In this document: piece after piece, positions 7,616-60,999 of the stretch | How the letters are laid out: the number at the start of each line of letters is the position of its first letter | Numbering within the stretch: the first letter of the stretch is position 1 | Source of the DNA: Parcubacteria group bacterium GW2011_GWA2_43_13 | Lineage (GTDB): Bacteria; Patescibacteriota; Patescibacteriia; UBA9629; GWA2-43-13 | DNA: 64,000 bases | Direction of reading: 5' to 3' | Assembly (NCBI GenBank): GCA_000999025.1 | Contig: LCFM01000003.1 | Location: 12,253 to 76,252, forward strand | The notes under the pieces: generated by a model | Databases searched by the model: none | Told to the model about the DNA's origin: nothing | Seen by the model: only the letters and a program-made list of their open reading frames with translations | Translations under genes and position numbers: made by a program

Positions 7616-7623
7616 ATTTTTCT

Positions 7624-7697: not shown

Positions 7698-7867
7698 CTC
7701 ATTACACACTATGGTTGCTTGCATTAAAATATCATGAATGATATAGTCCCGTACAAAGTATTCGCCATAAAATGCTTTAGTATTTTATGGCGAGAGGAGG
7801 GGCAAGCGTAGGCTGAAGTGTGGCACTTTAGTGACACACGTAAGCCAAAGCTTTGACCCGACGACGA

Positions 7868-7939
7868 CGCGGGGTAGAGAAATGGCATCTCGCCTGGCTC
7901 ATAACCAGGAGACTGCGGGTTCGAATCCCGCCTCCGCCA
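7868..7939 (+). tRNA. initiator tRNA-fMet (anticodon CAT)
   Basis: Unpaired 1:72 (C/C) and A11:U24 are both hallmarks of the bacterial initiator. Anticodon stem CCTGG/CCAGG with loop CTCATAA; T-arm GCGGG-TTCGAAT-CCCGC. Confidence 0.7.
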
Positions 7940-43195: not shown

Positions 43196-44389
43196 CTATC
43201 CGTTATTCAACGCTTCAAACCCAGGCAATGTGCCTTGTTCAATAAACTCAAGCATTGCCCCTCCACCAGTTGATATGTGAGTAATTTTTTCCAAATATTC
43301 TTTTTTAGATACAGCGGCTAATGTTTCACCCCCACCGATCACGGAAACAGCATCCTTATTCTGCGTGATTGCATAATAAATAAAATCAGTGCCACGGCCA
43401 AATGCGGGATTCTCAAACAAACCAACCGGTCCATTCCATATAATGGTTTTTGCTTTTGCAATAATTGCCCCAAACCGCGCCTGCGTTTCTGGGCCGATAT
43501 CTAAAATATACCCGTCTTGTGGCACTTCATCAACTTTTTTAATTTCTCCGCCTTCTTTTGAATTATCCGGCTCGCCGATCACAACATCAGATGGCAACAC
43601 CACTGCAGTGTTTTTTTGCGCGGCCATATACAAAATCCTGCGCGCATTTTCAATTTCTTCATACTCAACCAAGCTCTTGCCAATTTCAAATCCCTGCGCC
43701 GCGATAAAATTATTCGCCAATCCGCCACCGACAAGCAAATAATCGGCAAGTTCAAGCAACCTGCCTATGAATTTAATTTTCCCTGAAATTTTTGCGCCAC
43801 CGATAATGGCAACCAACGGCTTTTGCGGTTTGGCGATAACGGATGAAATCATTTCAATTTCTTTTTTCAACAGCAACCCGCCATATGATGGAATCAATGC
43901 CGCAACACCGACAACCGAAGTGTCAGTCCGATGACACACCCCAAACGCGTCGTTTACATACACATCTGCAAGTTCTGCTAATTTTTTTGCAAATTCAGGA
44001 TCATTCTTTTTTTCTTCGGCATAAAATCGGATATTTTCAAGTACCAATATCTCATTCTCTTTTTGTGCGGAAAATGTTTCCTTGGGTTCAATCAAAAAAT
44101 CATCAACTAATTTTACAGTAAAACCATCAAGATATTCTTGTAAACGAGCAACAACAGGTTTTAACGAAAGTTTAGGATCGCGTTTTTCAGGCCTATCGAG
44201 ATGAGACACCAATATCAATTTATTGCCTTTTTCAAGTAAATATTTAATCGTAGGCAGACCCTGTTGAATACGGGCATCGTCCGCGATAGTAAGATTGTCA
44301 TGCAACGATACATTAAAATCAACCCGCAATAATACCCGTTTATGCAAAATATCATGCTCATCAATAAAATGAATGTTAAAATCCGTCAT
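43196..44389 (-). CDS. pgk: phosphoglycerate kinase
   Basis: Full-length Pgk with conserved N- and C-lobe motifs (RVDFNVS, GGGA). Confidence 0.9.
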   Translation of the reverse strand: MTDFNIHFIDEHDILHKRVLLRVDFNVSLHDNLTIADDARIQQGLPTIKYLLEKGNKLILVSHLDRPEKRDPKLSLKPVVARLQEYLDGFTVKLVDDFLIEPKETFSAQKENEILVLENIRFYAEEKKNDPEFAKKLAELADVYVNDAFGVCHRTDTSVVGVAALIPSYGGLLLKKEIEMISSVIAKPQKPLVAIIGGAKISGKIKFIGRLLELADYLLVGGGLANNFIAAQGFEIGKSLVEYEEIENARRILYMAAQKNTAVVLPSDVVIGEPDNSKEGGEIKKVDEVPQDGYILDIGPETQARFGAIIAKAKTIIWNGPVGLFENPAFGRGTDFIYYAITQNKDAVSVIGGGETLAAVSKKEYLEKITHISTGGGAMLEFIEQGTLPGFEALNNG

Positions 44390-44416
44390 AGAATATCATG
44401 TATCAACAAAACCAAT

Positions 44417-44444
44417 GTAGAGACGGGGTGAACCCCGTCTCTAC
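44417..44444. repeat. Family A single hairpin (GTAGAGACGGGGTGAACCCCGTCTCTAC)
   Basis: Read directly. Confidence 0.8.
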
Positions 44445-44455
44445 ACAGTATACCT

Positions 44456-45562
44456 CTAATCGTGCTTCAACTCAAACGTGCTATCAAGACGATTCAATCG
44501 TTCCACAATGCCGCCGTATTCCAATTCTTCGCGCGGAAGCATAGATGGCTCGGTAAAGCCCTGTTCACGCATGGCAATAGATTTCTCCGCGGCTTTTTGA
44601 CGAACATAATCCCAGAATGGATCAACAAACACATCTACCCACTCTGTCATCTTTCCATTACGCATTGAAAACGTTATGCCTTGAACAATTGGAATGCAAT
44701 AATGCACAGATGCGGGCGAATTTATCGGCACCGGCATCAACGGCTGTTGGTGTGATCCGCGACAGTCGCCACCAACATAATGCGCATTGCGAAAGCACGC
44801 TCCCATTTCTTCTGTTGCCGGAAACATCTTTTGCACGCGCACCAATGCCACAGGATCATCCTTGCCAACGTATTTCCCTGCAATATGTTTTAACCGCGTT
44901 GTGGCTACAGAAACCACATGCTGATCTGGATACTTGCGAGAATAAATCGAGCGAACCACATATCGCCGTGTTTCCCGCAACAGCGCCGCGATATCATATA
45001 AATCCTCTGGCGCGTTTAATCGAATAACTTTGTCTGCTTCCAAATATTCTGTATCAATAATTTCAAAGGTAAAGCCCTTGTTCATTTCAGGCGCCACCAA
45101 CAGACCTGGAGACCACATTGGATCTGCGAACGCAAGATACATGGGCAAGTTAAACGCGCCCGGCTCGGTTTTATCCATAGTAAACACCATCACGGATTCA
45201 TTCGGCCGCTCTTCAAATTCAATTTCCGCAACCCCAGGCCCCATCCCTTGAATATTGCCGGTAAACGCGTCTTTTAATAAATCCTGCCCAGCGCCGTACA
45301 GACCTTGTGACTTTGCAACTTCAGTGCCTGCCACAAACGCGTCCCATACTAATTGATGAATCTTTTCATGCTTTGGGCCGTTGGTATGAGTCATCAGCAC
45401 TGCAATATCATCGCCAGTATAAAACACGCGGTGATCAGTTAAAAGATACTGGCCTTTTGCTTCAATAAAAGCGCGAACTGTTTCCAAAACTTTTTCTGAC
45501 GGTTTTGTATGCCCGCCAACCCCTCCGATATCTGCTTTAATGAGTGATAGTGTTATTTTCAT
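44456..45562 (-). CDS. fbp: bifunctional fructose-1,6-bisphosphate aldolase/phosphatase (archaeal-type, FBPase class V)
   Basis: MKITLSLIKADIGGVGGHTKP N-terminus, diagnostic of the FBP aldolase/phosphatase family. Confidence 0.8.
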   Translation of the reverse strand: MKITLSLIKADIGGVGGHTKPSEKVLETVRAFIEAKGQYLLTDHRVFYTGDDIAVLMTHTNGPKHEKIHQLVWDAFVAGTEVAKSQGLYGAGQDLLKDAFTGNIQGMGPGVAEIEFEERPNESVMVFTMDKTEPGAFNLPMYLAFADPMWSPGLLVAPEMNKGFTFEIIDTEYLEADKVIRLNAPEDLYDIAALLRETRRYVVRSIYSRKYPDQHVVSVATTRLKHIAGKYVGKDDPVALVRVQKMFPATEEMGACFRNAHYVGGDCRGSHQQPLMPVPINSPASVHYCIPIVQGITFSMRNGKMTEWVDVFVDPFWDYVRQKAAEKSIAMREQGFTEPSMLPREELEYGGIVERLNRLDSTFELKHD

Positions 45563-45624
45563 AGCCCCAATACAATACACTTTTGACTTATTTTTGTCAA
45601 AAAAATGCGTGAAGAAAAAAATCC

Positions 45625-46305
45625 TCACGCACGCCTTTGATACTCCTGCCGCAAGGCATCTACGGCCTGTTCAAGTGCCTTTGTCAGCGCTTCCTGCGTT
45701 CCATACAAATGAGAATCAATCGCCTGTCCCAATCTCACTTGTATGCGTGCGCGAAATAGCATTGATAAAGAAAAAAGCCGGCTCTTTTTCGACCACACGA
45801 GATGCGTCCCGAAGATAAAAATCGGGACTACTTGCAAAGGAACAAGCTCGGCCTTGCGAACGATGACTGATACCCCATCCTTAAAAGGCATGCCACGCAA
45901 AGGATCTGACTGCCGTCCCCCTTCTGGATACATAATAAGCGCATGCCCCTGATGAAGCACGGTGTTAATCAGGGTCAAATCCTTTCCAAGTTGATACCCG
46001 CGCGCGTTGCTTCTTTCAATAAGAAGCACATGAAAGCACTCGCACATAAACGCTCGAATCCGACCTTTTATGCCCCAATAGTCGCGCGCTCCGACAACAT
46101 AGAGCTCAACCCCTTGCAGTTTTGCCCACTGTGTAAGCAAGGAAACAAGCAAGGGAGTGTCAAAGTGGCTCGCGTGGTTCGACACAAACACCACTGGCGC
46201 TGTTTTCGGAAGATTCTCCCATCCGCAAACCTCAACGCGGTATAAATACCGCGCAATGTTTTGAAGGAGAGGAAACATCACCCTTTGTTTCAACCACTGT
46301 TTCAT
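45625..46305 (-). CDS. plsC: 1-acyl-sn-glycerol-3-phosphate acyltransferase
   Basis: HxxxxD catalytic motif (NHASHFD) and a PEGG-like block (YPEGG). Confidence 0.8.
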   Translation of the reverse strand: MKQWLKQRVMFPLLQNIARYLYRVEVCGWENLPKTAPVVFVSNHASHFDTPLLVSLLTQWAKLQGVELYVVGARDYWGIKGRIRAFMCECFHVLLIERSNARGYQLGKDLTLINTVLHQGHALIMYPEGGRQSDPLRGMPFKDGVSVIVRKAELVPLQVVPIFIFGTHLVWSKKSRLFSLSMLFRARIQVRLGQAIDSHLYGTQEALTKALEQAVDALRQEYQRRA

Positions 46306-46326
46306 CTCTCCGCCTCCTTCGCGTAA

Positions 46327-46740
46327 CTAAATCGCCACAACAAGAATTGATTCAAACTGGCCTTTGTTGTTTTGTGAAACCTCCCGCTCATGCCGTTCCA
46401 CCTTTGGCATCAGTTCTATCTCTTCCTCCAAAGGAAAGCCCTCAAGTTCTGCCTCCAGATACGTCTCTGAAAAATCACTAATAATAATATTAGTGTACAC
46501 TTCATTATACGAGCGTGAAAGCCCTAATAATTCGTTTACAAAAGATACAAGCAAATCGGTCTCATCATCCGCCTCGAGCGCGAGTGTCCGCGTAATGGTC
46601 GGCTCCTCCACAGGAGCATCCAAAGCAAGTAAATTCATCGCGCCTTCGAATGCTGAATAAAAAATATCTTCTAACTCTTTGCCATGAAGGTGTAAGTGTA
46701 ACCCTTCTTCATGGTCTTCTATTGAATACGGCATATTCAA
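46327..46740 (-). CDS. archease-family protein
   Basis: 137 aa with a MPYSIEDHEEG archease-like N-terminus. Acidic. Confidence 0.6.
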   Translation of the reverse strand: MNMPYSIEDHEEGLHLHLHGKELEDIFYSAFEGAMNLLALDAPVEEPTITRTLALEADDETDLLVSFVNELLGLSRSYNEVYTNIIISDFSETYLEAELEGFPLEEEIELMPKVERHEREVSQNNKGQFESILVVAI

Positions 46741-46936
46741 AAAAAATAATTAACTAAACCTCCGCGCGTTATCATTGCGATCCCCCACACAGGGATAAGC
46801 AATCTCGGAGAAAATAACGAACAAAAAAACAACCGCTCTTATTGTTAGATGATCTGTCAAAATTGTCAAGGAAAACAATATTGAAATAAAAAAAATCGAG
46901 TGGTTTCTCGTTCTTACGATTGAGAAACCACCTATA

Positions 46937-49900
46937 CTATGATGATCGTCGTGATAATACCTTATCAACTTCAGCAAGCACCTTCTGTGGATCAATATCG
47001 GATGCTCCTATTCGCCTACCATTTTCTTCAACAAAATGAGAACTTTTATATTCATCAGCCCATGCCTTATTGTAGGTACTCCCCCCTTGTTTGTAAATTC
47101 CCCGCGCTACAGGATGCAAAACTCTTCTCGTCGCAGGACCAGACCATGTGATGGGGTTTCCAAGAATCATCATAATATTTGGTGTGCCATACATTGAAGA
47201 AATATGGCCAATACCAGTATCCGGGGTAATAGTCATATCAGCAATATGAACAAGTACGCCGATACTCCCAAGGTCTTCTTTCGCCCGAGTAATATGATAA
47301 CCCTTATCACGAATCAGGCGATCCACCAGTCCTTCACTATACATACTCACCCGTTCTGGCCGAGTATCGTCGAGAAATACAATATGTGCATCAGGATACT
47401 TAGTGCAAATCCCGTCAAAAACCTTTTCCCATTGATCAGGATGATATTCCTTAGGCATAACAGACGAACCTGCAGAAACCACAATCACACGCTCTCCTGA
47501 TTGGATATTATACTTATCTCTTAACGCTTGTTCTCGTTGCGGGAAGTCATGACCTGGTTCCCAATAACGCTCTATTTTATTGATATTGTCAAATAACTTT
47601 TGTCCAAACATCACTTCAAAATTTCTCAAAATACGAGCAGGAAGCATATCATATCGAGTAATTCCTTTAGACACTGCTTTCTCATATACCGTATCTCTCC
47701 TCCTGCGAGGAGCTTCTTCAAGCCGCCAACTCGCATAGTCAATAGACATAACCCGAGAAGAATCAGTAATATCATTTTCACTCAACCCTAATATGTCATA
47801 GCTCTCAAAATTCTTATCAGCGTTTATGAGAAATCGCTCTTTACGCCCCTCCCACACAAAAAATTGTTTCATGCCACCAACTCCATATACTGAAACACCA
47901 GGAAACTGATTTTCCAATGGCTTCATTAAAGAAACCTGATTATTAGCAACAAAGACACGAATTGGCTTTCCTGAAATATTATTCCGTTTCATATATTCAT
48001 GCAACGCCATAATCATAGGCGTTGTAAGTACTGCGTCGCCAATAGGATGATCTAATATAACAACAATTTCTTCAGCGCGCTCAATGCCAGCAATAAGAGG
48101 GCTACGATCATAATATTCCTGTTCAAATGGACGCAATCCGATCCGTGTTTCTTCTAAATAAATATTTTCTATTTGATAATGGATTCGCCGTAACTCTTGT
48201 TGCACGAATGCATCCAAAGAATTATTTTTACCATATTGCTTGTTATATTTCTCAAGTTCTTTTTCATATTTCTGCCGCTGTACTGCCGAAATCGTTGAAA
48301 TCTGTTGCAACTCATGATATCTCTTTATTAAATAATCATATCTCCCCTTCAAACGAGAATCTGCAGCAAACCGCTCAAAGAACTTCTCACTTTCTGTGAG
48401 TGAATGACGGTACACTGCCATATCTGTATAATGTTTTTTCACTTCTCCACGATAATAATCAGGGGTCCGTTCAGGTCCATCTGGAGTTGGTTGCCGAGGT
48501 GGCATAGATGGCCCTCCACGCAACGGTGCGGCTTTGAGTTGGTTGCGTTTCCAGAATGGGAGCGCCCATGGCGACTCAACTGGCCCGCCCGGTGCAGGGG
48601 GCATGATGAGCGGGTTATGTATTGTCGCTTCTATCAACTGCTTTGTCATGTCATTGCCGATTGTAGTAGCTAATGCATGCCCATCTAACCGAATCTCCAT
48701 AAATTTCACCGGATGATGAAGATAATGCAAACTCTGCTCTGTGGTAAACAGTTTTGCGATTTCAGGCGGAAGTGTCAAACGGCCGTCAGGACTTGCGCCG
48801 TCAACTAAAATACTTAACCCCTTTTTATTTAATTCATCTGTCGGAAAAATCGCAAGTTGTAAGTGTTTTAATAATGACCCTTCACTATTCCACTGCCGCA
48901 ACTGATCCCGCAAATGTTCTAATTTGGAATCAAAACTTCCGTCCGGATTTCTGCCAAATTTGTCAAACGCATTTTCCGCGTTTTTCATCAAATTATTGGC
49001 AATGCCTCGAATGTCAAAATAGACCTTTCCATCTGCGGATTTATGCACATACCCCATTTGCTGTTTGCCTTCAAATTCAATCAAGCGATTAAAGAAATTA
49101 CTAAACCGCTTGCCGGGCTCATCATGCCAATCAGCGCGCGCATGTTTATCCAGCATGTCTTTCACATAGTCCATCGGATCAACCACCTTGCTTTCTTTTG
49201 TAATAACATCTTCCATGTTAAATCCATGCTCTTTGAGTTGCGAGATAGTATCTTCGGTCAAACTTCCATCCGGGTTGAAATGCAAATTTTCAAAAATCAC
49301 TTTGCCTTTTTCATTTACCAAATCAAATCCATCTCCTTTGCTATCGGGAATAATATTCATCCCGTCCGGTATTTTTACATTCACATCCTCTGCCCCGGGC
49401 AAATCAACATGCACATCATGAAACCCGGGACGGGGCGCTAACTCTTTAGCATGCTCTGCCACCTCGCCTGCGGCGCCTCCGGCGCCTTGCGCAACCTCAT
49501 GCGCCACGCCAGCGCCTCTTTCACCACTGCCGGTCATGTGATGCCACAACGCCTCAATATAACTGTCAGTTTTCGGCGCATGGCCAACTGCCTCTAATCC
49601 CTTAAACCATGCAAACTGCCCAACCGTTCCGGCTAACCCGCCTACTGCCACGCCAGCCAGCCCTGCGATAACTGCCTGGCCTCTTTTATACCTATCAAAT
49701 GCTTTATCATTCTCTTGGATATTTGAAACCAATGCATTCTTGCGATTATTAAAACGATTCAGAATTTCTACTGGGAGGTTATCATCATCTTCGAATCCAA
49801 ATTTTTTACGTACATCGCGCAATCGAATTTTTACATCAGTCATTGCAATTTCTTTTGTTTTATGCGGAAGGCCATACTGCACACCAATTAAATCAACTGA

Positions 49901-52453
49901 TTTTTTTTGCTCAACCTGAATCCGCGCCATAATATCTGCGACATAATCACGATCAGCATCAGCTAAACTACTTTGCGCATAAATCGCATCAAGTCGAGGA
50001 ATAACTGTTTCCGCTTTAATATGATCGTAATGAAACCGCTCAAGCGCTTTACGCTGGCGATCATTGGCCACTGTTTCCGCTCCAAGCGTTGATTGCCTTA
50101 TCGCAAGCCCGCGATCATATTTCAAATCCCTCATCCTGCGCATTGCCACAAACGCTCCACCGACTGCCATACTTGCAAGCAAAGGTGCCCAGGCAGGAGC
50201 CGTACTTGCAACGGTTGCAATAAATCCAGCAGTCGCAACTGCTTTTGCGCCGCGTCGAAACAAAGCATTGCCGACAAATCCACCTAATACGCCATATGCA
50301 ACTGGATTCGCAAGCACTTTACCGGCATGCTTCCCTAATACAGGAATATTTTCAACAAAATCAACATATTTTTCAAACCGAGTCAGAACCTCTTTAGGCT
50401 TATTATCATACAAATCACGCTGTTTTAATCCGAGCTGAATATCTAATGCCATTTCACGACGCAGATGAGTGAGAACCTTTTCCTCTTCTCCAGGATATTG
50501 TTCTGTAAGCTCTTGAATCCGTGCGCGGTATTCTTGCGCCAATTCCCAAAAATTATTTGCAAACAACAGCCCCCTTGCCTCGCGCTCGCGCGTTGCATCA
50601 TCTGAATAATTCTTTCCATGCAACAATGGTAATAATTGATGTTCAAGTTCCTCATCAAACGCTTGTCGCGTCATGGGATGCATGGCATGACGATAAAATA
50701 AATCAGCCGACACACTATTAATAGTTGCATTATCAGAAACGACCGCGCCTTTTTCATTTTGTTGGTTGATTTCTTCTGCAAATTGACGAATGACTGCGTC
50801 CAACACCTGATACGAAATATCTTGGCTTCCCGCATCAATCTGAATATTACTGTCGCCGCGAACTTTTGCTTCGATTTGTGTAAGTAAATTCTTATTACTT
50901 TGAATTGCGCTTAACGCCTCTTGATAGAATTTAATCAAATACCCTTTCTCGCTTGACCGTACCCACCAGCGTTTCACCATATTAGAATTATCAAGTAAGA
51001 CACGAAGTTTTTCTTCTGCCTCGCGCCATGCGTAGGCCTTTGCGATTTCTGACACATCAATAAGATACGCTTTCTTTTTGCCCAACGGCTGTGGTTGACG
51101 ACGTTCCGGAGTTGGCGTTGGAGTTTGCTCGGTTGGAGGTGTTGGAGTAGGTGCTGGGGTCGGGGACTGAGTTGGTACTGGCGCGGGCGATGTCGCAACT
51201 CTCGGCCGCGGAGTTGCGAGTAAATATTTCCAATGTTTGTGAGGTGTAATGGCTAAAAGGTTGAATGTTTTAGGATCCAACTGCACATGCCCAGCGGCGT
51301 CAACTGTCCCCAGCTGTTTTAGCGTATCAAGCATGACTTGTATATTATGCACATGACTTTGCCATACGCTGTCAACTAATGTTTGTATTTCCGGGGATGA
51401 CCGGGCCATGGTGCGCAAACTTGGATGCCCACCAGAAGCTTGAGCCAAGTAATCATAGATACCGTTTTCCTGCGTCAAAAGCGTTAAGAGCTGATCAAGC
51501 GATATATGGTTTGAATAGGTGTATGCTAACACTTCTTCTTTCCCCCACTTGGCAATATGTTCAAATACAATACGACCAACATGCGAGGAAATAACATCAC
51601 GTATTGTCTTATCAGGAAGTGCCTGCCACCAATCTACAATATTCCAATCCTCCGGTACCTGTGCATTCGGATCACCTATTTTTTTACGAATATTTTCAAC
51701 TTCATTTTGAATACCCCAGTGATCAATATGCTCAGGGAACATTGCTGAATTTGCCCGATGCCGCCATTCATGGCTTTGAATAGTAGCACCAGAAAGAGCA
51801 CCTGTTGTTGATCCATCTACAACAATGATACATCCTCGTAAATCAGGAGCATTCTTTGTAATGCGTGGATCACTATAGGAAAGAAATGCAGCGAGCCCGC
51901 CACTCCCAATAATAGTAATGTAATCGCGCTTATCATAAAAGGTAATATTGATGGTCGAAGGCGTAGGGCTTGTAATGTCAACATCGCCATATAATGACGT
52001 TTCAAAAATATCTGATGCCCATTGTTTGGGATCAGACATCATTTTTTGTGTCCGAAGTACAGCTGCGCATTGATCCACCACTAACCGCACTCGTTGTTCA
52101 ACAAGTTTTCGTTGATAAGTGGTTAATTTATCCATCTGTTCAGGAACCAATACCTCTCTCTCAACTTCTTGATACGTAATAGTCCCTGTCGGTCCGCCAC
52201 TGGGATTATTTTGACGAAACCCTTCAATCACCTCTATGGCATGATCAACAATCCCTGCCATAACCTTATATTCCACAACTAACTCATCGCGCGTATTTTT
52301 ATCAACACGATCTCTACGCGACGGCTCTCCCGGCGCAACAGCCACTAATAGTTGATTGCGGTACTCAGCCAAATCATAATTTGGCGTGGTATCTTGTGAG
52401 TGCGATGAGTCATCCGCTCTACTGATACCAATATACTCTCTTGTTTCTCCCAT
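46937..52453 (-). CDS. giant multidomain protein (1838 aa): membrane-anchored, Pro/Thr-rich linker, HExxH-containing N-region, and a C-terminal GT9 (heptosyltransferase-like) glycosyltransferase domain
   Basis: C-terminus VVILDHPIGDAVLTTP ... IADMTITPDTGIGHISSMYGTPNIMMILGNP matches ADP-heptose:LPS heptosyltransferase (GT9) motifs. Also an HEWRH motif, a PTPAPTPTPP linker and two hydrophobic segments. Confidence 0.7.
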   Translation of the reverse strand: MGETREYIGISRADDSSHSQDTTPNYDLAEYRNQLLVAVAPGEPSRRDRVDKNTRDELVVEYKVMAGIVDHAIEVIEGFRQNNPSGGPTGTITYQEVEREVLVPEQMDKLTTYQRKLVEQRVRLVVDQCAAVLRTQKMMSDPKQWASDIFETSLYGDVDITSPTPSTINITFYDKRDYITIIGSGGLAAFLSYSDPRITKNAPDLRGCIIVVDGSTTGALSGATIQSHEWRHRANSAMFPEHIDHWGIQNEVENIRKKIGDPNAQVPEDWNIVDWWQALPDKTIRDVISSHVGRIVFEHIAKWGKEEVLAYTYSNHISLDQLLTLLTQENGIYDYLAQASGGHPSLRTMARSSPEIQTLVDSVWQSHVHNIQVMLDTLKQLGTVDAAGHVQLDPKTFNLLAITPHKHWKYLLATPRPRVATSPAPVPTQSPTPAPTPTPPTEQTPTPTPERRQPQPLGKKKAYLIDVSEIAKAYAWREAEEKLRVLLDNSNMVKRWWVRSSEKGYLIKFYQEALSAIQSNKNLLTQIEAKVRGDSNIQIDAGSQDISYQVLDAVIRQFAEEINQQNEKGAVVSDNATINSVSADLFYRHAMHPMTRQAFDEELEHQLLPLLHGKNYSDDATREREARGLLFANNFWELAQEYRARIQELTEQYPGEEEKVLTHLRREMALDIQLGLKQRDLYDNKPKEVLTRFEKYVDFVENIPVLGKHAGKVLANPVAYGVLGGFVGNALFRRGAKAVATAGFIATVASTAPAWAPLLASMAVGGAFVAMRRMRDLKYDRGLAIRQSTLGAETVANDRQRKALERFHYDHIKAETVIPRLDAIYAQSSLADADRDYVADIMARIQVEQKKSVDLIGVQYGLPHKTKEIAMTDVKIRLRDVRKKFGFEDDDNLPVEILNRFNNRKNALVSNIQENDKAFDRYKRGQAVIAGLAGVAVGGLAGTVGQFAWFKGLEAVGHAPKTDSYIEALWHHMTGSGERGAGVAHEVAQGAGGAAGEVAEHAKELAPRPGFHDVHVDLPGAEDVNVKIPDGMNIIPDSKGDGFDLVNEKGKVIFENLHFNPDGSLTEDTISQLKEHGFNMEDVITKESKVVDPMDYVKDMLDKHARADWHDEPGKRFSNFFNRLIEFEGKQQMGYVHKSADGKVYFDIRGIANNLMKNAENAFDKFGRNPDGSFDSKLEHLRDQLRQWNSEGSLLKHLQLAIFPTDELNKKGLSILVDGASPDGRLTLPPEIAKLFTTEQSLHYLHHPVKFMEIRLDGHALATTIGNDMTKQLIEATIHNPLIMPPAPGGPVESPWALPFWKRNQLKAAPLRGGPSMPPRQPTPDGPERTPDYYRGEVKKHYTDMAVYRHSLTESEKFFERFAADSRLKGRYDYLIKRYHELQQISTISAVQRQKYEKELEKYNKQYGKNNSLDAFVQQELRRIHYQIENIYLEETRIGLRPFEQEYYDRSPLIAGIERAEEIVVILDHPIGDAVLTTPMIMALHEYMKRNNISGKPIRVFVANNQVSLMKPLENQFPGVSVYGVGGMKQFFVWEGRKERFLINADKNFESYDILGLSENDITDSSRVMSIDYASWRLEEAPRRRRDTVYEKAVSKGITRYDMLPARILRNFEVMFGQKLFDNINKIERYWEPGHDFPQREQALRDKYNIQSGERVIVVSAGSSVMPKEYHPDQWEKVFDGICTKYPDAHIVFLDDTRPERVSMYSEGLVDRLIRDKGYHITRAKEDLGSIGVLVHIADMTITPDTGIGHISSMYGTPNIMMILGNPITWSGPATRRVLHPVARGIYKQGGSTYNKAWADEYKSSHFVEENGRRIGASDIDPQKVLAEVDKVLSRRSS

Positions 52454-52457
52454 AGGG

Positions 52458-52769
52458 CTAACTGTTTAAATAAATATCCCGAAACTCCATCATGGTTTTT
52501 GCCATAATTTCATCAATACTCGGAATTCGTTCATGTAAAAATGACTGTACCTCTTGGCTATTGAAATCATGATTCTCTATGAGCTTTTCAAAATCCTTCG
52601 CATCCTGCGATGAGAATTCCTGAAAAATCGCCGTACCGATATACGCGTTCAAGCGTTGAGTAAGACCTGCCATCATATCTTGACGCAAATTATCTGATAC
52701 TCCGCCCTGTTCTGCCTCATCAATCAATTTTTCTAAAAAATCATGAATAAATTGTTCTCCTTGTTCCAT
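52458..52769 (-). CDS. hypothetical acidic protein (first gene of the giant-protein operon)
   Basis: Ends 4 nt upstream of the giant gene start. The start was set at MEQGEQF to exclude the family A hairpin. Confidence 0.45.
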   Translation of the reverse strand: MEQGEQFIHDFLEKLIDEAEQGGVSDNLRQDMMAGLTQRLNAYIGTAIFQEFSSQDAKDFEKLIENHDFNSQEVQSFLHERIPSIDEIMAKTMMEFRDIYLNS

Positions 52770-52779
52770 AGAAGCGTAT

Positions 52780-52807
52780 GTAGAGACCGGGTGAACCCCA
52801 TCTCTAC
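52780..52807. repeat. Family A-like single hairpin (GTAGAGACCGGGTGAACCCCATCTCTAC, degenerate)
   Basis: Two mismatches relative to the 44417 copy. Confidence 0.7.
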
Positions 52808-52828
52808 AGATTATATCAAAAACAAACA

Positions 52829-53086
52829 CTACGTGCCATTATCTCCATTCCCTCGATCGCTTTTTGCGATTCTCATAGAAAAAAATGCAACAATACCAGT
52901 AATAATCAACGCATAGATAATCTTTGCCATAACTGTTCCGCGGTCTAATGGGAAAATCTCTTCAATAAGCGCCACGATGGCATCGTTCCACGCAAGTCCT
53001 GCTACAACTCCAAGGCCTGCCACAATATAACCCAGTGTTTGCCTATGTAGTTCCTTGGTTAATTTGTCTTGTTTGTTTTTTTTCAT
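52829..53086 (-). CDS. small two-TM membrane protein
   Basis: 85 aa with two hydrophobic helices. Confidence 0.45.
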   Translation of the reverse strand: MKKNKQDKLTKELHRQTLGYIVAGLGVVAGLAWNDAIVALIEEIFPLDRGTVMAKIIYALIITGIVAFFSMRIAKSDRGNGDNGT

Positions 53087-54242: not shown

Positions 54243-54350
54243 CACCCCCTCCTTATACAGGATGGGGAAACTGATACATCACCTCTCCTTTACAAAGAGA
54301 GTGCCCATACGTCTCCCTCTCCGTTGCAAGGAGAGGGTAGGGTGAGGTTT
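54243..54350. repeat. cluster of three Family B hairpins (last copy reverse: CCTCACCCTACCCTCTCCTT-GCAAC-GGAGAGGGAGACGTAT)
   Basis: Intergenic between the HD gene and the MazG-like gene. Also encodes the last residues of the MazG-like ORF. Confidence 0.75.
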
Positions 54351-54678
54351 ACCGACCATCCCCGCTCCCACCTAACACACCACGGTCTTTGCGAGAAAAT
54401 AATTTTTCAATATTTGCTTGCGCGATATCATCTAATGATAATCCAAATTCTGTTGCGCATTGTGAAACATACCACAACACATCACCAAGCTCGCTCTTAA
54501 TATCTTCGCGTTTCTCATCAGATACAACACCACTATCATCCCGCATTATTTTTTTCACTTTTCCGGCAACCTCGCCTGCCTCGCTCGCAAGGCCCAATGT
54601 CGGGTAAATAAAATTCTTTCCCACATTGGGATACAGTGCCGTTGTTTTCGATTTTTGCTGATACTCTTCAAAGTTCAT
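54349..54678 (-). CDS. MazG-like nucleotide pyrophosphohydrolase
   Basis: ASEAGEVAGKVKK ... ELGDVLWYV all-alpha NTP-PPase motifs (EExxE...DxxW). Confidence 0.75.
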   Translation of the reverse strand: MNFEEYQQKSKTTALYPNVGKNFIYPTLGLASEAGEVAGKVKKIMRDDSGVVSDEKREDIKSELGDVLWYVSQCATEFGLSLDDIAQANIEKLFSRKDRGVLGGSGDGR

Positions 54679-54760: not shown

Positions 54761-55078
54761 TCAGTACAGTAAGAGAACAACACCTTGTGGGAAACTGATA
54801 ACAAGCACCTTGGGGCATACCGCCTGCAACCACAACGATTGATATATGACAATCGCATCTCGCAACCGAGAAAAGAATCGCTGTTTCACAGATCTGCTAA
54901 GTTGTTCCCACAAAAAACCGACACCCTCCAATGCCATACACGCACACTCAAGGGAATAGCATACCTCCATCTCACCCTGCGCTCGGACAACTCCGCGCAA
55001 TTCATAGATGAATTGTTCGAGCACGCCATCAAAAGCAATGGCGAGATCCGACTGGTCCATGAAAGTCCCCTTCATCAC
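54761..55078 (-). CDS. hypothetical protein
   Basis: 105-aa ORF immediately downstream of the OLD-family gene. Confidence 0.35.
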   Translation of the reverse strand: MMKGTFMDQSDLAIAFDGVLEQFIYELRGVVRAQGEMEVCYSLECACMALEGVGFLWEQLSRSVKQRFFSRLRDAIVIYQSLWLQAVCPKVLVISFPQGVVLLLY

Positions 55079-55137: not shown

Positions 55138-56448
55138 TTATAACACGTCTAAAATGCTCTTAATCACCCGCATTTCTTGTGTATCCAAATCCTGCGCCGT
55201 AATGCCGTGCGCGGCGCGCAAGGCATTGATCGGCTTTTTATCATCTCTCCGCTGATACTTACGCGGATAGCTTTTTTCCAAATCGCCATTAAGAATAAAA
55301 ATATTCGCTCGGCGCAACAGCTGTATCTTTTTATTCCGATTGGCGCGTTCATTCCCATACAGTGTCTGCGCAATCACATCAGACCAATGGCTCCGCAAAG
55401 CATCACCATCCAACATAATCAGGTATGGGATTTTAAACGCCTCAAATACTTTTGCGTAAATATCAATATTATCCTTACTATTGGCATACATAACTTTCAC
55501 ATCCAATTCGCCATGATAAAACCGGTCAATCAATCCGCGCATTAAAATTCTGTCAGACACGCCTTCTACCAATAACACTTGATCCGCAAAAAACATTTCA
55601 GAATTATCAGCATCAAGTTCTTGCTCAAGGCGGTTGGTGTTAATGGCAATACCAGAGTCGGTAAGTTGGTATATTTTTGTATTCCTGTTTTCATCGCGCG
55701 CAACCCGCCATAAATGCGCAATCTGCTGGGGCTGAACAAACACAGGGCTATGCGTGGTTAAAAATATCTGATTATTCAATTTTTTATCCTTTAATACCCG
55801 AACAAATTTTTTGATCAGCGTGGGATGAAGATGCGTTTCCGGCTCATCAATCAGCACAATATCATAATCAGGATGATACACATAAAATAACATCACAAAT
55901 AATCGCTTAAATCCTTCACCCATGCGCCCTAATGGACGATCTTTGCGATCTGAAAACACGGTTGCCAAAAACAGGCGATCGCTGATTTCAATATCATTAA
56001 AATATTCTTTGAGCATCGCGCAAAATTGAGCATATACGGCAGGATGCGTGGATGAAAACTGTTTCAACTCTTGCGCTACTTTTAATGTGTCTGTCTTCTC
56101 TACTCCAATCCGTATCACGCGTTTTTGAATATGTAAGATCGTAGATGTATTTTTTTGCACTTTTCCCCCATCTATCAACCATTGTTGAATATTTTTATGC
56201 TGTTTGATGCTAACATATTCTCCGCTTTTCAAACGCAGAGTAAGTTCCAAATCAGCGCGCGAATCATAAAATCGGTCAGGATCAGGAGATGGATTAAAAA
56301 ACTGCTCAATCGCATCTAATACATTGGTTTTGCCGGAATTATTTGGGCCGATCAAAATCTGAAGATGCGAAAAACGATCAAGCACAATCGGCTCTTCAAC
56401 TGTTTTGTAATGATTGATACGCAACGCTTGTATATGCATAGTAATCAA
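55138..56448 (-). CDS. OLD-family ATP-dependent endonuclease (ABC-type ATPase plus Toprim)
   Basis: Walker A LIGPNNSGKTNVLDAI, Walker B with the OLD signature VLIDEPETHLHP, TTHSP block, and C-terminal Toprim LLVEGVSDRIL. Confidence 0.75.
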   Translation of the reverse strand: MITMHIQALRINHYKTVEEPIVLDRFSHLQILIGPNNSGKTNVLDAIEQFFNPSPDPDRFYDSRADLELTLRLKSGEYVSIKQHKNIQQWLIDGGKVQKNTSTILHIQKRVIRIGVEKTDTLKVAQELKQFSSTHPAVYAQFCAMLKEYFNDIEISDRLFLATVFSDRKDRPLGRMGEGFKRLFVMLFYVYHPDYDIVLIDEPETHLHPTLIKKFVRVLKDKKLNNQIFLTTHSPVFVQPQQIAHLWRVARDENRNTKIYQLTDSGIAINTNRLEQELDADNSEMFFADQVLLVEGVSDRILMRGLIDRFYHGELDVKVMYANSKDNIDIYAKVFEAFKIPYLIMLDGDALRSHWSDVIAQTLYGNERANRNKKIQLLRRANIFILNGDLEKSYPRKYQRRDDKKPINALRAAHGITAQDLDTQEMRVIKSILDVL

Positions 56449-56539: not shown

Positions 56540-57778
56540 TTATTCATACCGCAACGCCTCGATCGGGCTTTTTCCTGCGGCCTTTTTTGCGGGATACAAG
56601 CCAAATACTAATCCGATAAGAGCGGAAACCCCCAGTCCTAACAGAGCCGCGTCAATAGGGAACACAAATGCCCACTGCATGGTTGCAAACCGCGATAACA
56701 GAAACGACGCGCTCCACGAAAGAAAAGCGCCAAACGCAATACCCACTATCCCGCCGATACCAGTAAGCATCACTGCCTCGCATAAAAATTGTATCAAAAT
56801 ATCGCGATCCCTGGCACCCACTGCCTTTCGTAACCCAATTTCGCGCGTCCGTTCCGCAACTGCCACAAGCATAATATTCATAATACCGATACCGCCCACA
56901 ACCAACGATATCGCCGCAACCGCACCCAACAACAATGTCAGTACTCCAGTTATAACTCCAACCCGCTCAATCGCGTCCGCCTGGGTAGTAACATGAAAAT
57001 CATCTTTTGATGGATCAGCAATCCCATGCGTCTCCCGTAATGTAAGCTCCACATCGCGTGCAACCCGCTCAACGCTTTCATCCGTCACCGCTTGCGCAAT
57101 AATGGAATGATAATAATTGATGCCGAGTAAATATTCCTGCGCCGTGGTGTAAGGAATAAAAATAATATCATCAACATTAACCAGCGACACGCGCCCCTTT
57201 TTCCCCATCACACCAATCACGCGTAAAGATTGATTTTTGACTTTAATTTTTTCGCCTATCGCATTTTGGCCATTAAATAATTTATTTTTTATTTCCGCGC
57301 CAAGCACTGCAACTGACGCGCGCTGGCGTACATCTTCATCCGTAAACATGGCACCTTCGGCAGGCCGAATATCCAAAATATCAGTCAACAAATCGGAAGA
57401 TCCCCATACTGTTGTTCGCACTGATTCATTTTTATAATTCACAGACGCGGCAACAGTAACAACCGGCGTCATATCTTTTAAATCCTGTACATTTGCGAGT
57501 TTGCTCAATGCGCGAATATCTTTTTCTGTTAACGAATCAGTATACATTTCAGCAAAATCAGATGGGCCTTGTGGTTCTCTCCCCGGCTCTATCGAGATTG
57601 TACGGCTCCCCCACCCTTGAATTTGGCTCAAAATCAATTCCTGCGCTCCGGCGCCGATTGCCATCACCATCATAATGGCGGTAATGCCGATCACAATCCC
57701 CAGAATAGTCAAAGCAGATCGAGACCGATTCGATTTTAACCCATGTACTGCTTGTATGATTGCGTAACGAAGCTTCAT
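56540..57778 (-). CDS. ABC transporter permease (MacB/FtsX-like)
   Basis: N-terminal TM, large periplasmic domain, and C-terminal FtsX 3-TM block. Confidence 0.85.
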   Translation of the reverse strand: MKLRYAIIQAVHGLKSNRSRSALTILGIVIGITAIMMVMAIGAGAQELILSQIQGWGSRTISIEPGREPQGPSDFAEMYTDSLTEKDIRALSKLANVQDLKDMTPVVTVAASVNYKNESVRTTVWGSSDLLTDILDIRPAEGAMFTDEDVRQRASVAVLGAEIKNKLFNGQNAIGEKIKVKNQSLRVIGVMGKKGRVSLVNVDDIIFIPYTTAQEYLLGINYYHSIIAQAVTDESVERVARDVELTLRETHGIADPSKDDFHVTTQADAIERVGVITGVLTLLLGAVAAISLVVGGIGIMNIMLVAVAERTREIGLRKAVGARDRDILIQFLCEAVMLTGIGGIVGIAFGAFLSWSASFLLSRFATMQWAFVFPIDAALLGLGVSALIGLVFGLYPAKKAAGKSPIEALRYE

Positions 57779-57798
57779 AAGTGTTCATGAACCCACTC

Positions 57799-57893
57799 CG
57801 TCATCCGTAGGGTGGCACCTCTCCTTGTTAAGGAGAGGAGGACGACGGCGTATCCCCCCTCCTTAACAAGGAGGGGGTAGGGGGTGGTCTACC
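57799..57893. repeat. two Family B elements head-to-head (forward copy ...CACCTCTCCTT-GTTA-AGGAGAGGAGGACGACGGCG; reverse copy CCACCCCCTACCCCCTCCTT-GTTA-AGGAGGGGGG)
   Basis: Intergenic between the ABC permease and ATPase genes. Confidence 0.8.
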
Positions 57894-57896
57894 TCC

Positions 57897-58613
57897 TTAT
57901 TTTTTATACTCTCTCTTCTCTCCATCTTTCCCAACACGCCGATCATGCTCAACATGGCCGTCCTTCATGGTGATAACCCGATGCGCGAATGCGGCAGTTA
58001 CTGTTTCGTGGGTAATAAGAATAATCGTTGTGCCTTGTTTTCTATTCACCTCATCCAAAATAGTCATTACTGCTTTCCCAGACACGGAATCAAGATTCCC
58101 GGTCGGCTCGTCTGCAAAAATCACTTCTGGATCCAGCACTAACGCGCGCGCAATGGCAACACGCTGTTTTTCACCACCAGAAAGTTTTGATGTATGAAAT
58201 TGAGAACGATGCGAAAGCCCGACTGCATCAATCGCGTGTTCAACACGATTATGCCATTCTTTTTTAGAAATACGAGAATATAGCAAAGGCAAAGTAACAT
58301 TTTCATACACTGAAACACGCGCAAGGAGATTAAATGCCTGAAAAATAAACCCCATTTTCTCGTTACGCACCAATGCTATTTCATCTGATGAGTACTCATC
58401 CATTGTTTTGTTTTCAAACCGATACACGCCATCAGTATGGCGGTCTAAAAAACCCAATACATGAAGCAGTGTTGACTTACCTGATCCAGACGGCCCCATA
58501 ATCGCGACAAACTCGCCCTTATCAATTGCAAAAGAAACACCGCATAACGCATGTGTTTCAACCCCGTCTGACTCATACACTTTGGTAATATTCTCTATTT
58601 CCATCAGCGCCAT
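57897..58613 (-). CDS. ABC transporter ATP-binding protein (MacB/LolD-type)
   Basis: Walker A GPSGSGKST, signature LSGGEKQRVAIARAL, Walker B IFADEPTGNLD. Confidence 0.9.
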   Translation of the reverse strand: MALMEIENITKVYESDGVETHALCGVSFAIDKGEFVAIMGPSGSGKSTLLHVLGFLDRHTDGVYRFENKTMDEYSSDEIALVRNEKMGFIFQAFNLLARVSVYENVTLPLLYSRISKKEWHNRVEHAIDAVGLSHRSQFHTSKLSGGEKQRVAIARALVLDPEVIFADEPTGNLDSVSGKAVMTILDEVNRKQGTTIILITHETVTAAFAHRVITMKDGHVEHDRRVGKDGEKREYKK

Positions 58614-58622
58614 ACTATCGAA

Positions 58623-60383
58623 TTATTTTTCTTCAATAAATGAAATAATCGTATCCCCTTTGGCAATGCCTTGTGTAATTTCCGTATTGCCGTCAGACCC
58701 TCGCAACCCAATGAGGATATCTCGCTCCTCATAGAGCGGATTTCCTTTTTTATCTTTACCTGTTAACACGCGGGCAAACCATTTTCCATCTTTTTGCACC
58801 AATGCGCGTTGCGGAAGTATAATCACTCCTTCCCGCATATCAGTCAGAATATCAATATTTACTGTCATGCCTGATTTTATGCGATTGTCATCTTTCTCAA
58901 ACTGCACCTTTGTCATATATGTTGACACACCGTCAACCGCGGTTTCAGCAGGGTCAATAGTAACAACATGCCCTTGAAATGTAATGTCAGGCCCATACGC
59001 GTCAAGCGTCATGACAACAGGGTCAGAGATAGAAACAAAAGAAATATCAACTTCTGGAATATTTGCTTCTATTTCGTATTGAGCATCCGATATAACCGTA
59101 ACAACAGGACTACTCGCAGAAACAATTTCTCCGCGCTTCGCGCTCACCTGCGTCACAACGCCTGTGATGGGAGAGCGAATCATCCTTTTTGCAATTTGTG
59201 CCTGAATAGATCCAATATTCGCGTCCGCTTGCTTAATAAGCGCTTGCTGGGATTTGACAGTTGCCTCTGACTGACTAAGTTGCGCGCGCTGAGCTTCAAC
59301 CTGCTCATCTGTCGCGCCTGCTTTTTTCAACGCAAACTCGCTTTGTGCCAATGCCAATGCGTTTGTTGCGTCAGTCACTTGCGCCTGCGCAGATGTAATC
59401 GCTGATTCATTTGTCGCTTTTTGCACGGCAATGGCTTGTTGTTTCGCAGATGCTGTAATAATCTCGGCGTTAATGTTTGCTTTTTCCGTATTCAGATTTG
59501 AAGTATTCGCCACTGACACTCGATTCTCAATAGCAACCGAAGTCAATGCCGACTGAATGGCAAATAACGATGTTTTCATACTGCTGATTGCTTCGTCAAT
59601 ATCCGCATGCGATTGAGAACGTTGGGCTTGGATAACCTTCCCACGCGCACCGTTTTCTATCGAATTCATAAATTCTTTCGCCATTTGCCTGCCATTACTC
59701 TCTCCTAAAAAAAGAAAAATAGCATCCGCCTTTGCCTGGGCTAAGACAAAACTATTGGTATCATTATTTAAAAAATAGGCAAACTGAATATCAGTCAGCG
59801 TGTACAACGCACCTAATCCAATACTCACAGATTGAGACAGCGCGGATAACGCATTTTGATATGCCTCATTGATATCTGCCTCTGCTTTTTTTTGCGTTGA
59901 TATCAGCTCTGATTGAGCATCTTTTACCCCCTGCTCCGCATGGGCAACTTTGATTTGGAAAATAACAAGCTCTTCACTGCGCATGCCCTTAATCACTTCA
60001 TTTAATTTTACTTGCTGGGATTTTACACCAGCTTGATACTGCAATAATAAAGCACGCGCGCTTTCCGCGCTGGCCTGCGCCTGCCGAAGTTGCGCTCCCA
60101 GTTCCTGCGTTTCCAAAGACACTAACAACGCGCCCTGTTGCACATAATCTCCAACTACTGCAGGAAGTACGGCGATTTTCCCACCCACTTCAAACGCCAA
60201 ATCAACCTCTGTTGCAGGTACAACTTTACCGGTCACACTCACTTCATGTGTTACATCTTGAATGCGCGCTTCTGTTGTTTCAAATTGCACCGGCTTCTGC
60301 GACCCTATTACAATAAGTCCAATTCCTCCGGTCGCAATAACAAAAACAATAATCATGATGATGATTTTTTTCATTCTTTTCAT
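58623..60383 (-). CDS. HlyD/MacA-family periplasmic adaptor with extended coiled coil
   Basis: N-terminal TM, long alpha-helical hairpin region, C-terminal beta-barrel/MP domains. Confidence 0.75.
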   Translation of the reverse strand: MKRMKKIIIMIIVFVIATGGIGLIVIGSQKPVQFETTEARIQDVTHEVSVTGKVVPATEVDLAFEVGGKIAVLPAVVGDYVQQGALLVSLETQELGAQLRQAQASAESARALLLQYQAGVKSQQVKLNEVIKGMRSEELVIFQIKVAHAEQGVKDAQSELISTQKKAEADINEAYQNALSALSQSVSIGLGALYTLTDIQFAYFLNNDTNSFVLAQAKADAIFLFLGESNGRQMAKEFMNSIENGARGKVIQAQRSQSHADIDEAISSMKTSLFAIQSALTSVAIENRVSVANTSNLNTEKANINAEIITASAKQQAIAVQKATNESAITSAQAQVTDATNALALAQSEFALKKAGATDEQVEAQRAQLSQSEATVKSQQALIKQADANIGSIQAQIAKRMIRSPITGVVTQVSAKRGEIVSASSPVVTVISDAQYEIEANIPEVDISFVSISDPVVMTLDAYGPDITFQGHVVTIDPAETAVDGVSTYMTKVQFEKDDNRIKSGMTVNIDILTDMREGVIILPQRALVQKDGKWFARVLTGKDKKGNPLYEERDILIGLRGSDGNTEITQGIAKGDTIISFIEEK

Positions 60384-60399
60384 ATACTACTGATGCTGA

Positions 60400-60999
60400 T
60401 TACTTTTCCTCTTTCAACCCTATCAATGCGCGATACAACCACATGGCAAGAACCGCACCGACAATCGGCCCTACAAGATACATCACGTTACGCGCTCCAA
60501 ACACAAGCGCGACAGCAGGGTTCAGAAGCCCCAATGAAACAGTAGAGGCAACGCTGATACCGATAAGAAACGCGCCTCCAATAACAACGCCTGATAATGA
60601 TTGAGAGGCCTTTTTCTCAATCACCGCGCTCACACCAAAAGCCAACACGAACGCGCCGATCAATTCTGCAAGACCGACAATGCTGGTATTTTTAACCAAT
60701 GGATTCATTGGGCTTATGATAAATACCCCTGCCAGCGCCGCCGCAAGCCCGGCGCCTGCTAATTGCGCGATGATATATCCAAGCGCATCCTGAACACCTA
60801 TTTTACGCACAGAAAATACCGCAAGCGTAATAGCGGGATTCAAATGCGCTCCTGATACCATGCCGAGTGTATACACGCAAAAACCGAGCACAAGAGCGGC
60901 AAGCGCCGGTGTGCCGATGCGGGTAATAAGTCCAGTTGAAACAAGCACGCTGAATGCAAGCAAAAACGTGCCGATAAATTCTGCAAGATATTTTTTCAT
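60400..60999 (-). CDS. aquaporin / MIP-family channel
   Basis: Two NPA boxes (AHLNPAITLA and LNPAVALV). Confidence 0.85.
   Translation of the reverse strand: MKKYLAEFIGTFLLAFSVLVSTGLITRIGTPALAALVLGFCVYTLGMVSGAHLNPAITLAVFSVRKIGVQDALGYIIAQLAGAGLAAALAGVFIISPMNPLVKNTSIVGLAELIGAFVLAFGVSAVIEKKASQSLSGVVIGGAFLIGISVASTVSLGLLNPAVALVFGARNVMYLVGPIVGAVLAMWLYRALIGLKEEK

Follow-up and report, generated by a model that had tools for sequence, protein, structure and literature searches.

A gene for a giant protein of 1838 amino acids (aa), located at 46937..52453 on the minus strand of a 64,000-nucleotide (nt) stretch of contig LCFM01000003.1 from Parcubacteria group bacterium GW2011_GWA2_43_13 (assembly GCA_000999025.1, positions 12,253 to 76,252; the whole stretch is called the window hereafter), belongs to a family of giant proteins of modular build that extends across the candidate phyla radiation (CPR), or Patescibacteria, and had not been described. 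The proteins of this family share a core of about 850 aa (aa ~456-1311 here), which has no relative of known fold detectable by sequence comparison, carry variable modules at both ends and, in almost every locus, are encoded directly behind a gene for a small acidic DUF5663 protein. We propose, with a probability of roughly 0.4, that they are DUF5663-chaperoned, membrane-inserting carriers which deliver interchangeable enzymes of intracellular type through the CPR type IV secretion system (T4SS); the activity brought by the window protein would then be that of a GT9 glycosyltransferase, perhaps together with that of an HExxH hydrolase. CPR bacteria form a large share of bacterial diversity and are attached to other microbes, and how they manipulate these hosts is largely unknown. 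The ~850-aa core, the modularity at two ends with cassette swap, the near-universal DUF5663 partner and the T4SS linkage appear to be undescribed; in the literature no paper was found on DUF5663, on this protein family, or on heptosyltransferases or giant modular proteins in CPR secretion.

The open reading frame (ORF) starts with ATG and continues without interruption to its stop codon, which confirms the giant 1838-aa protein described in an earlier sequence-only reading of this DNA. The product was deposited as KKS94241.1, OGY70592.1 and HAZ16371.1, labelled 'hypothetical protein' of Candidatus Jacksonbacteria (Parcubacteria), and exactly the same 1838-aa protein is recorded on 9 contigs from several projects with independent accessions, so the ORF is neither a frameshift-repaired fusion nor an assembly artefact. 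That assembly or annotation joined several genes into one chimeric ORF is therefore a practically negligible possibility; the giant gene does appear as two ORFs in two other loci, L011 and L013 (L and P numbers are used for loci and proteins, respectively), but the architecture of core plus GT9 domain is repeated in another giant protein, P0067, and the members of the family as a whole are nearly all 1.2-2.3 thousand aa long. In these two loci (L011 4502..10108 and L013 728..4268) the two ORFs are consecutive or overlapping; the gene could truly be split there, or a frameshift or an error of sequencing could be the cause. All parts of the window gene lie on the minus strand and follow one another, from the N-terminus, as a variable domain (aa 1-415, 51209..52453), a Pro/Thr-rich linker (aa 416-455, 51089..51208) joining this variable module to the core, core part 1 (aa 456-960, 49574..51088), core part 2 (aa 1011-1311, 48521..49423) and a swappable C-terminal cassette (aa 1312-1838, 527 aa, 46940..48520). 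The SHEWRH motif (aa 227-232), the Pro/Thr linker, the Gly/Ala hydrophobic segments and the IGDAVLTTP motif, all pointed out earlier, are found in the translation.

The family emerged only from an exhaustive HMMER profile search, in which aa 1-1200 of three relatives were compared with 1.84 billion representative proteins. This search gave 257 clusters at E ≤ 1e-3, 132 at E ≤ 1e-10 and 96 at E ≤ 1e-30, having in common the regions that correspond to aa ~440-965 and ~1000-1310 of the window protein, while a word-indexed search with a 12-sequence core profile gave one relative. All named members and all genome loci belong to the CPR, including Jackson-, Komeili-, Buchanan-, Gribaldo-, Moranii- and Magasanikbacteria, Paceibacterota and Saccharibacteria (P0128 in L015); a first scan of genome contigs with N-terminal patterns found no relatives, and a scan of viral contigs found none. 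For aa 1-1320 there was no match in Pfam, NCBIfam, PHROGs or PADLOC, and neither the protein nor the profiles A2 and A5 had a significant match when searched against PDB sequences. Thus, the domain search of the N-terminal part that had been suggested yields no database domain, and it is the profile search that exposed the core: the long central region to which no function had been assigned is present, but the earlier reading missed that aa 456-1311 are conserved across the CPR and that the GT9 part is only one of the many end modules that can be exchanged.

According to an AlphaFold2 model of aa 456-1320 (42 sequences, mean predicted local distance difference test score (pLDDT) of 79.5), the family-defining core part 1 would consist of a confident α/β domain (aa ~456-700), a hydrophobic Gly/Ala-rich region A (aa 713-772, 50138..50317) and a confident helical domain (aa ~755-935), which ends in a 60-residue helix carrying at its end the hydrophobic, glycine-zipper-like segment B (aa 927-950, 49604..49675). 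Core part 2, which ends in PWALPFWKRN before a Pro-rich junction, is modelled as another α/β domain (aa ~1011-1285, pLDDT ~90); region A and the Gly/Ala linker have low confidence. Both regions, A and B, are rich in Gly and Ala, have only moderate hydrophobicity (Kyte-Doolittle peaks 1.3-2.0) and are bordered by Arg/Lys; two family-conserved hydrophobic helices lie in A and one in B. These regions may span the membrane permanently, form a monotopic hairpin or insert only when required. No signal peptide and no hydrophobic stretch outside regions A and B were found in the family members. The ~850-aa core is a worthwhile structural target.

The exchange of the C-terminal cassette is seen directly between close relatives. 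A word-indexed homologue search with the full-length protein gave two relatives, P0001 (2044 aa, 72% identity) and P0002 (1842 aa, 58% identity), which align to aa 1-~1312 and are fully divergent beyond that point, P0002 ending in a GT-A-like domain and P0001 in a GT-A-like domain together with an FkbM methyltransferase. On the metagenome contig L003, a P0001-type gene occupies the same genomic position as the window gene, and the genes downstream of it (archease, acyltransferase, fructose-1,6-bisphosphate (FBP) aldolase/phosphatase and phosphoglycerate kinase (PGK)) match those of the window. The two DNAs are 79% identical up to 48519 (codon ~1311) and show no homology across the C-terminal module, and the homology returns at 46914, 23 nt past the stop codon of the giant gene, and continues at 75-88% identity. 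The GT9 cassette is cleanly replaced between these syntenic relatives, at the Pro-rich junction. The GC content of the cassette is 0.405 against 0.435-0.458 for the rest of the gene; a recent foreign origin of the cassette was considered and was not adopted, the drop being only modest and not decisive. The GT-A-like + FkbM cassette is accompanied by a 174-aa ORF without Pfam match (L003 5149..5673, L001 6248..6685), which is absent from the window and has no relationship to the ORF behind P0002.

The cassette of the window protein is, as judged from its homologues, its motifs and its modelled fold, a GT9-type GT-B glycosyltransferase, in agreement with the GT9-like C-terminal domain claimed before. 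Since the score of the giant protein itself against PF01075 is just below the cut-off of 22 bits (18.9 bits for the whole protein and 21.7 bits for the C-terminal piece), the GT9 identity rests on homologues and fold, with the motifs in addition. The domain proper (aa 1441-1838, 46940..48133) has 12 homologues at 32-42% identity and 99% coverage, PF01075 being present in 11 of them, and nearly all are stand-alone proteins of 406-530 aa. Its AlphaFold2 model (pLDDT 84, predicted template modelling score 0.84), which was the check proposed for the GT-B fold and the catalytic residues, best matches in Foldseek the GT9 structures 3tov from Veillonella, 1psw (WaaF) and 2h1h/6dfe (WaaC) with E of 3e-13 to 5e-9. 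The domain contains IGD, PKEY and TPDTGIGH motifs, the last near the C-terminus of the giant protein, and G32-D33, K228-E229-Y230 and P304-D305-T306-G307 (domain numbering) are invariant in the homologue alignment A3. The GD after the first strand and the PDTG align with the corresponding GD and DsG motifs of 3tov, and the motifs also align with K192 and D261 of a WaaC sequence entered by hand. Furthermore, the cassette including its helical leader of ~130 aa (aa 1312-1838) aligns collinearly with P0010 over the full length of that stand-alone protein (530 aa, 34% identity) and with aa 1079-1598 of the giant P0067 (41% identity). The GT9 domain by itself is an ordinary new member of a known family, and its fusion to a giant protein, noticed earlier as unusual, is real and recurs in P0067. 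In L004 (58..4262) and L005 (1..3605), the gene for one of the stand-alone homologues, P0005, begins 12 nt behind secA and is closely followed by a NUDIX hydrolase gene, upstream of Mur ligase and MurL genes; in this setting, glycosylation might be linked with export or with the synthesis of the wall.

The sequence-only reading had mentioned the BAHT enzymes in connection with this domain, and in an explanation of this kind the giant protein would be a BAHT-like heptosyltransferase fused to a giant surface adhesin and would glycosylate itself or a neighbouring adhesin. The GT9-like GT-B fold and a possible protein acceptor are indeed in common, TibC is among the structural matches, and giant membrane proteins are reported to be abundant in CPR genomes (PMC8080830). 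However, the match to TibC (E ~6e-7 against 3e-13 for the best) is far below those to WaaC and WaaF, GT9 enzymes of the lipopolysaccharide (LPS) type, and to 3tov, and there is no sign of a dodecamer. The TibC structures 4rap and 4rb4 contain an iron-binding site of four Cys, and the GT9 domain lacks such an iron-finger site because aa 1441-1838 have one Cys and alignment A3 has no invariant Cys. No autotransporter is encoded near the giant gene, where Pfam identifies PfpI, HD, archease, acyltransferase, FBP aldolase/phosphatase and PGK; signal peptide and adhesin-type repeats are lacking too, and the GT9 domain is one among many alternative end modules. For these reasons the analogy is not supported and this explanation is very improbable.

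In the family as a whole, both ends are variable. Over 42 members, the flanks comprise 97-968 aa before the core and 162-1128 aa after it, and clustering of these variable regions gave a GT-A-like C-terminal module in 14 members, one type of N-terminal domain in 18, the GT9 module in two (P0067 besides the window protein), and many singletons. Pfam recognises GT2, GT9, a protein kinase (P0076), PP2C (C-terminal in P0081/P0204) and FkbM among the end modules, and each recognisable module requires an intracellular cofactor, namely nucleoside diphosphate (NDP)-sugar, S-adenosylmethionine (SAM) or ATP. Moreover, the same domain of ~360 aa precedes the core in P0065, P0069 and P0112 and follows it in P0066, P0070, P0091 and P0097, the copies being 25-50% identical (E down to 1e-100), and because one domain is found at either end, this suggests that both ends of the proteins reside in one compartment. 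The N-terminal domain of the window protein (aa 1-415) is confined to this protein, P0001 and P0002, and it contains the HExxH motif noticed before (HEWRH, aa 228-232, 51758..51772), followed by FPEH. HEWRH...FPEH is invariant in the three homologues, which are too few sequences to call the domain a zincin, and the domain has no Pfam match even at E ≤ 1 and no PDB sequence match.

The gene 4 nt upstream of the giant gene (52458..52769, minus strand) encodes a DUF5663 protein of 103 aa with a pI of 4.3 and a net charge of -13 (PF18908, 28.6 bits against a cut-off of 23.7); its stop codon TAG is followed by CCCT and then by the ATG of the giant gene, as the gap had been given. An alternative start, GTG at 52829, would give 123 aa, but ATG at 52769 is preferred because the homologues have 100-118 aa and because space is left for a promoter-like site and a hairpin. 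Of the 18 loci that have upstream sequence, 17 show a DUF5663 homologue immediately before the giant gene, and the spacing of 4 nt is often repeated; the exception is L014. These homologues (L001, L002, L007-L013 and L017-L023) come from many phyla, all have 100-118 aa and a pI of 4.2-5.7, and PF18908 is found also in those of L021, L022 and L023. In L022 (9663..20440) there are tandem DUF5663 genes, one preceding the kinase-bearing P0076 and the other, after a 62-aa ORF, preceding a 1267-aa protein without the family core, so DUF5663 may serve more than one class of large protein.

The earlier reading had added a third gene to this unit as an operon. This gene (52829..53086, minus strand) encodes a DUF5654 protein of 85 aa with two hydrophobic helices, and its ATG overlaps the stop codon of the DJ-1/PfpI gene by 4 nt. 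DUF5654 is found in none of the other family loci, and a promoter-like site and a hairpin (52781..52839, minus strand) lie between it and the DUF5663 gene, just upstream of the latter: ATGGCA, an 18-nt spacer and a TG-extended TATAAT (10 of 12 matches, on the level of consensus), and then a 9-bp stem (-21 kcal/mol, z = -2.6). The spacer might be a 5'-untranslated regulatory element for the DUF5663-giant pair. Therefore, of the proposed conservation of three genes, the adjacency of DUF5663 and the giant gene stands and the trio does not; the conserved unit is the gene pair, since DUF5654 was found in no other locus and DUF5663 in 17 of 18. A relationship of DUF5654 to T4SS pilins was considered and rejected, no BLAST similarity being found.

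The T4SS comes into the picture by the neighbourhoods of other members. A VirD4-like type IV coupling protein (T4CP) gene of ~830-840 aa (TrwB_AAD_bind/DUF8128) adjoins the pair in four loci, in the order giant gene, 147-aa gene and T4CP in L011, T4CP, DUF5663 and giant gene in L013, and giant gene, ~100-aa gene and T4CP in L018 and L019, and T4SS-pilin-like genes (PF18895) are close by in L009, L010 and L023. In addition, the C-termini are basic: over their last 30 aa, 44 members average a net charge of +3.8 and 73% of them have at least +3, against a background of +0.23 and 18% in the 39 window ORFs of at least 200 aa, and this holds across unrelated C-terminal domains. A positively charged C-terminus, as Vergunst et al. 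reportedly found in 2005, marks the substrates of VirB/VirD4 systems. With T4SS neighbours and basic tails, the host-interaction or effector-like role imagined before is plausible and has gained independent genomic support. Among other neighbours, a gene for a 490-aa protein with a HopA1 domain directly follows P0066 on a Moraniibacteriota contig (L020 16485..17957), HopA1 being a family of type III effectors, and ftsZ is just downstream of the giant gene in two unrelated loci (L017 12389..13576, L023 10477..11670), with a gene for a 409-aa T4SS_pilin-like protein between the two in L023.

According to a 2025 survey (PMC12102498), the T4SS of Patescibacteria occurs widely and goes back to conjugation systems of monoderms but has no relaxases, and its substrates and function are unknown; in the sole species tested it was essential for epibiotic growth. 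Only 148 of 5,713 T4CP homologues are near virB4, and the T4CP, reported as non-essential in that species, may be exapted for another role, while the authors favour an import function for the system (PMC12102498). From these data and the T4CP genes adjacent in four loci, the giant protein could also be a non-secreted partner of orphan T4CP ATPases, its core being a membrane component in some other process, for example uptake of host macromolecules, and its modules processing the cargo that is imported or exported. The extreme variability of the end modules would be unusual for a component of a machine, however, the core has no similarity to VirB6, VirB8 or other T4SS parts, and many loci have no T4CP nearby, so we regard this explanation as improbable.

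For the delivery of enzymes proposed above, the following course may be envisaged. VirE1, which serves VirE2 in Agrobacterium, and IcmS/IcmW of Legionella are small acidic chaperones or adaptors of T4SS effectors, and the effectors dependent on IcmS/IcmW include a glucosyltransferase, a kinase, a protease and a methyltransferase. DUF5663 would be a dedicated chaperone or adaptor of this kind, which would keep the hydrophobic core soluble in the producing cell and would present the giant protein to the type IV coupling protein. The monoderm-type T4SS of the CPR would then export the giant protein into or onto the partner (host) cell, the core would insert into the target membrane, and the end modules would work in a compartment containing nucleotides, because all recognisable modules need NDP-sugar, SAM or ATP. 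In the case of the window protein, the GT9 module would glycosylate some acceptor of the target cell, and exchange of cassettes among close relatives would diversify the activity delivered.

Several observations weigh against this proposal. T4SS genes are nearby in only 7 of 19 loci, of which L018 and L019, and also L009 and L010, are mutually related, and two of the pilin matches are weak. Neither tblastn nor Pfam found a T4SS gene in the 64-kb window, where the neighbours are housekeeping genes. The tail of the window protein is only weakly basic, its last 8 aa (KVLSRRSS) having a net charge of +3 and its last 30 aa one of 0, and that of P0001 has a charge of -1; the reported dispensability of the T4CP points in the same direction. 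No immunity gene linked to the cassette was recognised in the window; the small ORFs downstream in L002 and L003 were considered as such and rejected, as they are mutually unrelated and have no Pfam match. To our knowledge, GT9 enzymes have no precedent as delivered effectors. Lastly, chaperoning, export, membrane insertion and the target are what we infer, from an architecture, a swap, a partner gene, neighbourhoods, a charge bias and a GT9 fold that are themselves observations.

The main rival explanation places the protein in the membrane of its producer, where the hydrophobic regions would be permanent anchors, as a hairpin or an even number of spans, with both ends in the cytoplasm. The protein would then be a scaffold on which the end modules, at the inner membrane face, synthesise or decorate a glycoconjugate of the surface or modify export-bound proteins; cassette exchange would diversify the surface glycan under the pressure of phages or host recognition, and DUF5663 would be a regulatory or assembly subunit. 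Much of the material agrees with it: the commonest C-terminal modules are glycosyltransferases (GT-A-like in 14 of 42 members, and GT9 in addition), the FkbM methyltransferase goes with the GT-A module, and the GT9 module resembles LPS-core enzymes, which act at membranes. Moreover, stand-alone GT9 homologues are found in housekeeping or glycan settings, after secA, beside Mur ligases or beside a DegT sugar aminotransferase, and genes for envelope glycans, LCP in L007 and GtrA in L018 and L019, are near some loci, two facts which also count against delivery; the window locus is housekeeping and syntenic, and a cytoplasmic location suits both the modules requiring cofactors and the domain that occurs at either end of the core. 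The scaffold leaves unexplained, however, the kinase, PP2C and HExxH modules, the basic tails across unrelated domains, the recurrent adjacency of T4CP and pilin genes and the tandem DUF5663 genes of L022, and as constitutive transmembrane helices the hydrophobic segments would be rather short, rich in Gly/Ala and low in hydrophobicity. On balance, this explanation is somewhat unlikely, and a little less probable than the delivery proposed above. If it is true, CPR bacteria would have in this family a modular machinery of a new type that glycosylates their surface.

Returning to delivery through the T4SS, a more far-reaching form of the proposal is that the DUF5663-giant pairs are the cargo of the Patescibacteria T4SS in general: phylum-wide, bipolar and cassette-swapping effectors, which DUF5663 would chaperone and orphan VirD4-like ATPases would recruit, and which would be injected into the bacterial host, where a translocation core of new fold would anchor them in the membrane. 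This form is somewhat unlikely as it stands, and if it is true, the window protein would be the first GT9 enzyme acting as an inter-bacterial effector. The DUF5663 + giant-protein pair is easily recognised in genomes and offers concrete candidates for CPR T4SS cargo, also in cultivable Saccharibacteria systems.

The remaining part of the window contains, among others, the following genes. Directly downstream of the giant gene (43196..46740, minus strand) are genes for a bifunctional FBP aldolase/phosphatase of archaeal type (509 bits), for PGK and for a short archease, a block syntenic with L003. Two genes upstream of the giant locus is a gene for an OLD-family ATPase with a TOPRIM nuclease (55138..56448, minus strand; Old in PADLOC with 123 bits, GajA-like; AAA_21/AAA_15/OLD-like_TOPRIM in Pfam), and after it come a 105-aa ORF without Pfam match (54761..55078, minus strand) and a MazG pyrophosphohydrolase (54349..54678, minus strand), and these three may form a small defence island. 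A MacB-type ABC exporter set (56540..60999, minus strand) comprises a permease (FtsX/MacB_PCD), an ABC ATPase and a protein of 586 aa (source name: MFP subunit), followed by a MIP-family channel. Furthermore, the window, which is from a small CPR genome, encodes a NiFe-hydrogenase large-subunit-like protein (34268..35599, plus strand), an EamA transporter fused to DUF6390 (35993..37672, minus strand) and a cluster of three tRNAs, Leu-CAA and two Met-CAT (7531..7939, plus strand).

Compared with known systems, the C-terminal cassette is like the GT9 enzymes WaaC, WaaF and 3tov in its GT-B fold, for which these enzymes give the top structural matches (E 3e-13 to 1e-10), in the N-terminal GD, the donor-site K-x-(W/Y) and the D-T-G motifs, and in having homologues with PF01075. 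Unlike them, it is fused to an unrelated protein of ~1300 aa in a lineage without LPS, a helical extension of ~130 aa precedes it at the N-terminus, its acceptor domain contains an insertion, and its sequence identity to the solved enzymes is 12-16%, with its own Pfam score just below the threshold. The giant protein also resembles polymorphic toxins and modular effectors such as Rhs, CdiA, MARTX and the large clostridial toxins, as a conserved carrier bears interchangeable enzymatic end modules, the C-terminal enzyme is variable and its cassette is cleanly replaced between close relatives; the central hydrophobic, translocation-like region is a likeness to the large clostridial toxins in particular. 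It differs from these toxins in that no Rhs/YD, LXG, CdiA or MARTX trafficking domains are found in aa 1-1320 (Pfam, NCBIfam, PHROG, PADLOC), no immunity gene is recognised, the N-terminus is variable too, and the modules are transferases and phosphatases, not the usual nucleases or deaminases.

The third comparison is with T4SS effectors that have chaperones, namely VirE1-VirE2 and the IcmS/IcmW substrates. The giant proteins have no sequence or fold similarity to these effectors, they are far larger, their modules vary at both ends of a conserved middle, their translocation is proposed from genomes, and the CPR system is a monoderm, conjugation-derived T4SS. In common with these effectors, on the other hand, they have a small acidic gene immediately upstream, basic C-terminal tails, a coupling-protein gene nearby in several loci and an enzyme repertoire typical of effectors, and with VirE2 they may share a potential to act on membranes.

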